DNA from: Carcharhinus longimanus
Lineage: Eukaryota
Assembly: GCA_030264375.1 (NCBI GenBank)
Contig: JASCQW010000027.1
Location: 90,485,161 to 90,549,160 of the forward strand
Length of the DNA stretch: 64,000 nt
Direction: 5' to 3'
The notes under the pieces are model-generated. The model made no database searches, was not told the origin of the DNA, and saw nothing but the letters and a program-made list of their open reading frames with translations. This document shows, one piece after another, positions 1,545 through 44,800 of this stretch (within the stretch, counting starts at the first letter, position 1; every line of letters begins with the position of its first letter). A program made the translations under genes and the position numbers.

Positions 1545-1987
1545 CGTGAATATCGTATGATTGCTTTCTGCCTGACCTTCGCACTTTGAAGCTATTTTGC
1601 AAGACTAAGAAAGGGCAGATCAGTGACATTCAGCCTGGGAAAATGGTACAAGTGCAAGTCAGAAGCAAACCCACAAAAAAGGAAGTGTAGATAAGGCTCA
1701 CAAAAAGTAAATCTTATCTGGGCAAGTCTTTCCAGTAATGCTGACATTTTCTTTAAAAAAGAGGAAAGATTATTTCTGAATTACAGAAAAGAACTCTAAT
1801 CCCTACTGAGATATGAGTTTAGAAATGCACATCGATAGTTTCTATTTAGAAAGAAAAGCAGAACATTCAGCATGTTCAAGGCTAAAAAGTGACAAGGATG
1901 AAGGAAGTGCCACTTTGCAACTTGGATACTCCCTGAAACGATTCCGGCTATAAATACAGATTGCTATGAACTGCAAACGGATTTAAG

Positions 1988-2440
1988 AATATAGAAACAT
2001 AAGAAATAGGAGCTGGATTAGGCCATTTGGTCCATCAAGACTCCTGCCTTAAGATCATGGCTGATCTTCTAACTTCACTCTACCTTCCTGCACTATCCTC
2101 ACAAGGAGGAGATAGACTTCTCGGCTCTAAAGGCGTCATGGATATGGATAGGGTGAGGTATTGAGATAGAGAGGATCAGCCATGATCATATTGAGTGGCA
2201 CAGCAAGTCTGAAGGGCCAAATGACCTACTCCTGTTCCTATTTTTTATGTTTCTATGTTTCCCTTAAATTCCTTTGTACCTAAAATTCTATCAACCTCTC
2301 TTTCGAACATACTTAGTGACATTGCATCCACAACTTCCTGGGATAGAGAACTTCAATGCTTTACAATCCTCTGGATAAAGAAATTTCTCCTACATGGGTC
2401 ATATTGGGTCAATCCCTCTTCCTGAGATCCTGACCCATTC
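1988..2440. mobile_element. Nested CR1 3' ends: minus-strand copy (1988-2100, 2261-2440) interrupted by a plus-strand copy (2105-2260)
   Basis: ATAGAAACATAAGAAATAGGAGC on one side, CCTACTCCTGTTCCTATTTTTTATGTTTCTATG on the other; minus copy resumes after 2260. Confidence 0.75.
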
Positions 2441-42411: not shown

Positions 42412-42756
42412 TCATAGAAATCATAGAAACCCACAGTGCAGAAGGAGGCCATTGGGCCCATCGAGTCTGCACTGACCACAATCCCACCAGGCCTTCCCCC
42501 ATATCCCTACACATTTACCCACTAATCTCTCTAATCTCTGCATTTCAGGACACTAAAGGGCAACTTTAGCAGAGCCAATCAACCTAACCCGCACATCTTT
42601 GGACTGTGGAAGGAAACTGGAGCACCTGGAAGAAACCCACACAGACACAAGGAGAATGTGCAAACTCCACACAAACAGTGACCCAAGCTGGGAATTGAAC
42701 CCAGGTCCCTGGAGCTGTGAAGCAGCAGTGCTAACCACTGTACTACCATGCCGCCC
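42412..42756 (-). mobile_element. HE1-type SINE
   Basis: Full head, V-domain, tail ending in TTTCTATGA repeats. Confidence 0.92.
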
Positions 42757-43049: not shown

Positions 43050-44110
43050 CATAGAACAGCATAGAAGGAGGCAATTCAGCAAACCATCCTTGTGTCGACT
43101 CTTTGCAAGAGCTATCTAATTAGTCCCAATACAGTGCTCTTTTCCCCATAGTCCTGCAAGATTTTTTTCCCAATAAGTATTTATCCAATTCCCATTCGTG
43201 AGTTATTATTGAGTCTGCTCCAACAATCTTTCAGGCAGTACATTTTGGATCATAACATCTTAGTGTGTAATTCTTTTTTACTTACATTGCCTCTGGTTCT
43301 TTTGCCAATTACTTTAAATCTGTGTGGATTTTTTTTCTACCAGTGGAAACACTTTCTCCTTATTCACTGCACCAAAGCCCTTCATCATTTTGAATATTGC
43401 TATCAAATTGCTCCTTAACCTTCTCTGCTCCAACAAAAACAACTTGTGTTTCTCTATCCTCTCATCTGTCATTCCTTGCACCATTCTAGTGATTCTCCTC
43501 TACAGCCTCTATAAGCCCTTGACCTATTCTTCCTAAAGTGTGGTGCCTACTATTGGACACAAACTCCAGCTGGAGCCTAACCAGTGTTTTGTCAAGATTT
43601 AGTATCACTTCTTGCTTTTGTACTCTGTGTCTTCACTTCCTGGCCTTTTGGCTAAGATCAAGTATATTTTGTTGATCCTACACTTGATAGAAGTCAATGA
43701 GGTTACACTCAGGTTTCATTTGAAGCAATTTTTTAAAACCTTTTGGCTAAGATGGAGCTCAGATCAAGCACTGAAGGGGTTTCAATACTTGTTCCTATCA
43801 GCTCGGATCTTGTTGATTGAGCCTAAGAGAGGAAATGGGCAGCCTGTCTTGTCAGCTTGGATCTGTAACGTCTCTCTTGTAGGGACTTTAATTGGATTTT
43901 GATTGGATATAACTGAAAAAACTCTCTGCCTTTGTTGATAACTATCAGGGATACAGCATGCCTTTTTAACGACCTTCTCAACTCATGCCATCACTCTTAA
44001 TGGCTTGTTTGCATATATCCCCAGTCTCTCCGTTCTTCTCAACTCCTTTGGGTGCCCTCGAGGTCTCCTACAAAACAGGTTCAGTTCTGTGTGTTTTTTC
44101 CTCACAATTT
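43050..44110 (-). mobile_element. CR1 3' fragment interrupted by U2-derived element
   Basis: CR1 3'UTR and ORF2 end on reverse strand; continues across 43634-43920. Confidence 0.75.
43634..43920 (+). mobile_element. U2 snRNA-derived retroposon (candidate SINEU-like element or rearranged pseudogene)
   Basis: GGCCTTTTGGCTAAGATCAAGT (43642-43663) equals U2 nt 11-32; further U2-like blocks at 43739-43810 and 43844-43900; A-tail; flanks ACTCTGTGTCTT/ACTCTCTGCCTT. Confidence 0.75.
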
Positions 44111-44486
44111 AAAATCATAACTCTTGCCCAGATTTGTATGAAGTTATATAGACCACGAAGGTACTAATCTGAATTGCTACTCTGTGCTTAGCTAGGTGAT
44201 CTCAACCTGACAAGTGATAGTAAAGCCACGTCTGTATATCTGGATAAAGAGATAACCAGAGTTTTAGATCTATTTTCTATCTCGTGACCCTTGTGGGAAA
44301 GTGCACATGTACGAATATCGGATGAAAATCAGATCAGGCTCACTGTGATGCTCTCCACAGTTGAATAGCCTATTTTTATGCTAGCTTTCACATGAAGAAT
44401 ATACAGTTAGCCTAGTAACAACAGGGCTAGCACCATCCATAGAACCCTTACACAATTCAGCACAGGGGGAAAAATGTGGAAGAAAA

Positions 44487-44800
44487 TCATAGAATCATAC
44501 AGTGCAGAAGGAGGCTATTCAGCTCATCGAGTTTATACCGACAACAATCCCCGCCCAGGCCCTATCCCCGTAACCCCATGCATTTACTCTAGTGAATCCC
44601 CCTGATACTAAGGGGCAATTTAGCATAGCTAATCCACCTGATCTGCACATCTTTGGACTGTGGGAGGAAACCGGAGTAGCCAGAGGGGACCTATGCAGAC
44701 ATGGGGAGAACATGTAAACTCCACACAGACAGTGACCCATTCGGGAACCAAACCCAAGTCCCTGGGTGAGGCAGCAGTGCTAACCAGTGTGTCAGAGTGC
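44487..44800 (-). mobile_element. HE1-type SINE
   Basis: Head, V-domain and tail on reverse strand. Confidence 0.9.

Follow-up and report, generated by a model that had tools for sequence, protein, structure and literature searches.

Short retroposons headed by small nuclear RNA sequence (SINEU) were defined by Kojima in 2015 and, in the portion of that work considered here, are described from crocodilians only, linked to Tx1-Mar near Keno, with their transcription left open (PMC4494074). The snRNA heads of crocodilian SINEU were there proposed to arise by template switching to free snRNA. As far as that text describes them, SINEU-1, -2 and -3 have U1 or U2 heads, repeated 5′ snRNA additions, partial duplications, a poly-A tail, target-site duplications (TSDs) of ~10 bp, tandem insertions around a TSD, oligo-T runs, thousands of copies and a Tx1 partner clustering with Keno (PMC4494074), all of which recur in the shark family reported below, and SINEU-3 resembles the monomer of that family in being a modified U2. 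The two differ in the target held in common with Tx1, which is a U2 site in the shark family and Mariner-N4 in crocodilian SINEU, and in the body, which is largely diverged U2 in the shark whereas the 3′ half of SINEU-1 has no known origin (PMC4494074, in the sections covered). An inverted arm and short tags beginning at U2 nt 39 (U2 39+ tags) belong to the shark family only, as neither appears in the crocodilian SINEU text covered (PMC4494074). Compared by description only, the shark family would have arisen independently of crocodilian SINEU. It is also like snRNA retropseudogenes and snRNA-LINE chimeras, in which 3′-truncated U2 is joined to retroposed RNA and flanked by TSDs (PMC4494074, same sections), and unlike them in that one mosaic has been fixed and amplified through successive subfamilies.

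The literature searched, including the accessible portions of PMC5381603, PMC4758252, PMC7245038 and PMC5786205, contained no shark SINEU (Repbase and Dfam lay outside that search and may hold it), and the main text of PMC13343379, as far as it was covered, makes no mention of snRNA, SINEU, Tx1 or Keno. The element described here lies at 43632-43921 of a window of 64,000 nucleotides (the whole stretch of DNA analysed) from Carcharhinus longimanus. It is, almost beyond doubt, one decayed member of a dispersed family of U2-derived short retroposons, here called U2-SINE, and so adds a second vertebrate lineage for snRNA-headed SINEs.

Anatomy of the copy at 43632-43921

The element and its flanks are made up as follows.

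43380-43633, minus strand: CR1-like LINE fragment, downstream part of the ORF2 C-terminus, read from translation and broken by stops and frameshifts
43622-43633, plus strand: left TSD, last bases overlapping the element start, 10/12 against the right copy, score 7
43632-43668, plus strand: new U2 head, U2 nt ~1-37, with an exact core at 43642-43663 (U2 11-32)
43674-43697, plus strand: inverted arm, complement of U2 17-40, exact at 43678-43688, with a predicted pairing to the head that is partly decayed here
43698-43738, plus strand: linker, also in the U1-headed sister form, with an 11-base deletion relative to the family
43739-43810, plus strand: 5′ part of the old U2-monomer body (U2 13-27, a repeat of 20-31, a short insert, ~31-57)
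43811-43846, plus strand: second copy of the monomer's insert segment, an internal tandem duplication recognised by eye against monomer loci
43847-43898, plus strand: block derived from U2 44-97, with stem IIb arms at 43870-43875 and 43881-43886 and a relic Sm-like stretch
43899-43921, plus strand: family 3′ end with a six-A tail (43916-43921)
43921-43932, plus strand: right TSD, 10/12 against the left copy
43921-44070, minus strand: CR1-like fragment, upstream part of the same ORF2 stretch, read from translation

The reference for all alignments was the host's own U2 gene (locus L031), taken from an Rfam search of the genome in which it scored 188 bits. The head matches U2 2-35 at 30 of 34 positions (43633-43666), and its 22-nt core is identical to the host gene, in agreement with the first-pass annotation, which had read this block as the U2 5′ end. 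That annotation had also pointed to an inverted piece of U2 26-36; the reverse complement is exact and extends to U2 17-40 (19/24). The U2 pieces said to be repeated in a second block were recovered at 15/15 (U2 13-27), 11/12 (20-31) and 11/12 (41-52), and a third block, likened to U2 40-104, aligns with U2 44-97 at 37/54, while the family consensus matches U2 40-110 better than 300/300 shuffles. Alignment to the host gene confirmed that the U2 3′ half is absent. The earlier description of a multimeric, rearranged U2 is best replaced by an old, diverged U2-monomer body with an internal duplication of the insert, in which the core motif is present twice, 54 bases apart, joined to a newer U2 head. 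The proposed Sm-like stretch is present, with only four T's, and lies in a repeat that varies between subfamilies; it is an unconserved relic.

The Rfam U2 model, suggested as a check, matched 43632-43813 at 35 bits (E 8.8e-05), below its gathering score of 46, and with this sub-cut-off score and no 3′ half the copy does not qualify as a functional full-length U2 (nt 1-191, Sm site, 3′ stems). The copy folds no better than shuffles (z -0.29); its predicted minimum-energy fold contains the pairable stem IIb that had been noticed in the sequence and no head-masking hairpin. It carries neither a U2 39+ tag nor an AATAAA and is likely inert, without function. Matches to tRNA, 5S or 7SL were not found within it, and internal runs of T4-T6 are present. 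The linker matches that of a U1-headed locus (L187) better than 300/300 shuffles; a U1 origin of the linker itself is unsupported, 56 and 49 of 300 shuffles being as good.

The 12-bp duplication with two mismatches reported earlier was recovered and is weak on its own, as its score was reached by 109 of 870 mismatched flank pairs. It is backed by the CR1-like ORF2 frame on the minus strand, which continues across the insertion in a LINE that we take to be a CR1 by its motifs. A blast search for collinear CR1 flanks at the insertion gave no match. Elsewhere in the window, pieces of a tRNA-type SINE, presumably of the common, HE1-like shark type, occur at 44480-44800 and 42680-42750, with a weak minus-strand tRNA match at 42687-42746.

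A dispersed family in three structural forms

An exact 17-base core was matched 3,092 times genome-wide (control, 0) and was found in 21 of 63 SINE copies sampled by other means, from which a family of roughly 9,000 units is extrapolated. A search of the genome with a 306-bp query gave 1,513 first-look candidates, of which the best 40, those scored, are 78-84% identical to the copy at 43632-43921 over most of the query. Thirty aligned loci (mean identity to their own majority sequence 86%) have a common mosaic that begins at U2 +1 or close to it and closes with a common motif and an A run, and full-length copies start at U2 +1 with no common upstream extension. TSDs are enriched: 11 of 30 copies reach a score of at least 8, compared with 41 of 870 mismatched flank pairs, and many of the TSDs lack an A-rich start. 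Flanks at separate loci have only common repeats in common, and among ~45 flank pairs no single host repeat had a fixed insertion point (the Mariner-N4_AMi sequence itself lay outside the comparison). The composite retroposon family proposed in the first-pass annotation, in preference to a processed pseudogene, is thus upheld on copy number, common mosaic and ends, and distinct flanks, and the locus is neither single-copy nor the flank of a LINE. A 25-mer characteristic of the group that contains the copy has 18 genome matches and occurs in 3 of 30 loci, so this group numbers a few hundred.

The U2-SINE is ~300 bp long, non-coding, A-tailed and multi-copy. In structure and in the type of its partner it matches the SINEU class, with a U1 or U2 head, a length below 500 bp, TSDs at unrelated loci, recurrent 5′ additions of U1 or U2 and a target common with a Tx1 LINE, and is set apart by lineage, target and anatomy.

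Three structural forms were distinguished: a diverged U2 monomer, a U1-headed form, and a form with a second, newer U2 head and an inverted arm. Script-based flagging of thirty position-ordered core matches (two of which are the same copy) gave 11 U2-headed long copies, 4 U1-headed copies, 9 monomers and 6 that were unflagged, gapped or truncated. The monomer is an A-tailed, diverged U2 that reaches ~nt 170 and carries an insert behind nt 31; the U2 matches to three monomers were each better than 300/300 shuffles. The same held for the U1 matches to five sister heads, in which Rfam called no U1; loci of the U1-headed form include L167, L168, L187, L191 and L020. The long form, to which the copy at 43632-43921 belongs, combines a near-perfect U2 head, the inverted arm and the linker with a duplicated, monomer-derived body that lacks the U2 3′ half. 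Individual loci can be more elaborate: L191 carries some five tandem repeats of a U1-derived segment, the head of L020 is built as U2-U1-U2, and L057 consists of two copies of different subfamilies placed head to head.

A tree of 82 copies takes the shape of a ladder of subfamilies with a well-supported younger clade (bootstrap not fully settled), in which end branches are mostly 0.03-0.07, compared with 0.074 for the copy at 43632-43921 and a median of 0.095. Contigs from four public runs of four organisms were compared with the 3′ part of the copy and its flank, orthology thus resting on the 3′ junction. Contigs of two organisms bridge this junction with at least 31 letters on each side (16 differences in 456 bases and 13 in 439), and those of the two others extend only ~30 and 20 letters into the element (32 differences in 408 bases and 7 in 282), which places the insertion before the divergence of at least three related organisms. 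Each run yielded 28 to 303 aligned contigs, most of them on the element, which shows the family to be abundant in all four. SINE copies are potential presence/absence markers for shark phylogeny.

Probable partner LINE and the junction at U2 nt 38/39

The partner of the U2-SINE is very probably a Tx1-type, Keno-like LINE. A search of the genome for zf-RVT returned 592 candidates, among which no intact LINE was recovered; apparent open frames of 900-2,500 aa proved to be assembly gaps. The LINE encodes RVT_1, zf-RVT and a piece of an APE-type endonuclease (Pfam E 5e-4, below cut-off), with degenerate CCHC knuckles upstream, and the closest solved structure to its reverse transcriptase (RT) is L1 ORF2p. 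It classes as an APE-type non-LTR element of L1/Tx1 type, and we presume it to be Tx1 from two traits of that group, a knuckle ORF1 and zf-RVT. Its closest named proteins come from sharks and rays (best identity 85%), in keeping with the shark lineage suggested earlier for the family. No named Keno protein was among the homologues returned, and no longer homologue was found for the ORF2 piece, which is weak evidence.

A 20-mer from the LINE 3′ end has 718 exact genome matches, and a U2 head follows within 10-40 bases of 20 of these. Twelve of the 20 loci could be parsed (8 were left unparsed); in 5 of them the flanks that follow the two A runs agree at 6/8 or better, a level reached by 8 of 132 mismatched pairs. 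In 30 position-ordered LINE 3′ ends, 2 are followed by a SINE and none by U2 39+. No general TCT target motif could be made out in 30 LINE ends, and no common 3′ tail of SINE and LINE was seen by eye. The two form tandem trains, in which many insertions begin in an A run, and both are overwhelmingly inserted outside U2. One such train (L055/L123, G000 C81) strings together a Tx1 3′ end and five or more SINE units in head-to-tail order.

Exact junctions of A5 with U2 39-52 occur nine times genome-wide (control, 0). The sequence upstream is a LINE 3′ end in four (L125, L128, L130 and L132), a SINE 3′ end in four (L126, L129, L131 and, as a short remnant, L127) and a bare A run inside U2 in the ninth (L124). 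A precise U2 junction is thus common to the SINE family and the Tx1-type LINE. The 3′ target quoted for Keno, a U2-specific LINE of the Tx1 clade, is this same U2 39-52 sequence (PMC6136364, in the passage available), and Keno and Utopia use one common U2 site (PMC4640811, likewise in part). The partner LINE is like Keno, as far as the Keno sources were covered, in having APE, RT and zf-RVT and in that some of its copies end exactly before U2 nt 39; it differs from Keno in that its specificity is strongly relaxed and by no means strict, with 4 exact junctions against 718 ends. Utopia has the same target base, and the specificity of crocodilian Utopia is also weakened, with the difference that its endonuclease is of the RLE type, against the APE type of the partner LINE (PMC4640811, same portion). 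The shark genome offers a view of a U2-targeting LINE with relaxed specificity beside thousands of non-autonomous copies.

A SINE end with an A run and U2 39-46 was found eight times (control, 0; ~0.2 expected by chance); four of these run into a long U2 remainder, three into a second A run after 9-11 bases and one into another copy. In five dispersed copies (L011, L129, L223, L224 and L226) a short U2 39+ tag is enclosed by an A run on either side. Two of these, L223 and L226, also show TSD-like repeats beyond the tag, and L224 is wholly devoid of the U2 5′ part. AATAAA precedes the second A run by 15-25 bases in four of the five, a spacing judged against the usual cleavage distance; it was counted in 5 of 17 young copies, a figure that is unreliable, as copies are cut at the alignment end. 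Tags are rare, with ~ten found in a family of thousands, chiefly in its young subfamily, and L011 is the only tagged copy from the group of the copy at 43632-43921. The U2 match of the family heads ends at nt 37 in 14 of 42 and at nt 40 in 7 of 42.

Transcription of the family and competing explanations

We consider it reasonably probable that the copy at 43632-43921 is an old copy of an abundant shark U2-SINE that was pasted by a Keno-like Tx1 LINE and transcribed from source copies at nt 38/39 in U2 genes. The LINE endonuclease would mostly cut loosely and sometimes at the U2 site, and a SINE landing at U2 nt 38/39 would be read from the upstream Pol II promoter of the U2 gene. Its transcript would start at U2 +1, gain a fresh U2 head of nt 1-37/40 and be polyadenylated just past the SINE's own A run. 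Source copies of this kind would account for the stacking of heads and for the short U2 39+ tags that dispersed copies carry. That U2-gene source copies supply the transcripts, at least for the younger subfamilies, seems somewhat likely on sequence grounds, and it offers a directly testable answer to the question of SINEU transcription, predicted by the Keno-site junctions and the tags. No internal promoter is evident in the U2-SINE. No intact U2 gene that combined a promoter, a SINE inside it and a complete 3′ part was found; L126 has 5S-like sequence upstream, L131 has a truncated U2 with a gap upstream, and L228 ends in an A run. No clear promoter motif was seen by eye in the regions upstream of U2 and U1 genes. 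At L126 (G000 C32), a full 5S rRNA-like sequence (1969-2087, minus strand; 86 bits) is fused directly before the SINE copy, which is interrupted after its head by a second repeat and followed by U2 39-191.

In source RNAs, the inverted arm is predicted to fold over the bases of the head that pair with the branch point. The first 70 bases of a young copy form a long hairpin with a predicted energy of -33.0 kcal/mol (-15.7 for U2 1-70), which covers U2 26-40, a region that we take to include the branch-point-pairing sequence. The arm was recognised in 80 of 82 copies; 122 changes in it preserve pairing (wobble included) and 47 disrupt it. Of the 53 copies parsed for stem IIb (29 were unparsed), 19 have T-A and 24 have A-T at pair 6. 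These counts are of copies, not of independent events, with few events behind them, and they suggest, without proving, selection on the source RNAs. It is a tentative proposal that the SINE parasitises U2 genes outright, with the LINE homing to nt 38/39, a borrowed promoter, a renewed head and a fold-back arm that would spare splicing; if true, this would answer how promoter-less SINEU elements are transcribed.

The same family and Tx1 partner could instead have been served by unrelated flanking Pol II promoters, with heads acquired by template switching and tags from U2 pseudogene fragments, an account we regard as unlikely though of some weight. It accommodates the varied ends of the 5′ U2 extensions (L171, 1-50; L170, 1-52; L231, 1-56), which fit template switching to free U2 RNA equally well. 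U1 heads and the 5S-like head of L126 are left unexplained by insertion at the U2 site and require template switching in any case; U2 pseudogenes are common (48 Rfam matches), and snRNA additions are documented (PMC4494074, in the portion covered). However, L223 and L224, which lack most or all of the U2 5′ part, are hard to derive from a pre-existing fragment, and the repeats outside the tag in L223 and L226, the ending of fixed heads at the Keno site and the start of full-length copies at U2 +1 also argue against this account and for source copies in U2 genes.

Mobilisation by L1 or another poly-A-recognising LINE, with U2-site junctions and neighbouring Tx1 copies that reflect a preference for A tails or homology between head and target, would suit the many tandem insertions that begin in an A run and the observation that no 3′ tail common with Tx1 was seen, but homology of the head cannot set where the 3′ junction falls at nt 38/39, Tx1 uses the same base with no known U2 head here, and many TSDs are not A-rich at their start, which leaves it very improbable. 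Hardly more credit is due to the idea that the copies arose as retropseudogenes from a handful of host genes for variant snRNA, a structured, U2-like non-coding RNA, with upstream promoters of their own, and are not self-propagating SINEs. The monomer does span U2 1 to ~170, stems are kept between subfamilies and an internal promoter is not evident; against this, the subfamily ladder, stacked heads, A tails and tandem trains with the LINE are retroposon behaviour, the U2 3′ half and a stable Sm site have been lost, and no conserved single source locus was seen. Finally, the sub-threshold Rfam score and the weak TSD would suit a one-off chimeric U2 pseudogene or a chance match, a notion refuted for practical purposes by thousands of core copies, dozens of them with the full mosaic.

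Two tandem U2 units are present at L124/L080 (G000 C32): the first is preceded by a Tx1 3′ end at nt 39, and the second shows a bare A run at nt 37/39 and passes into a 5′-truncated Tx1 after nt 58. Ten dispersed full-length U2 sequences (L035-L039, L041-L044 and L049) have a ~35-base 3′ trailer as in the host gene L031 and unrelated flanks, and are retrocopies of a 3′-extended U2 precursor. Three small contigs (L046-L048), probably an array of degenerate genes, contain a U2 variant that bears an internal 3′ deletion and lies between common flanks.
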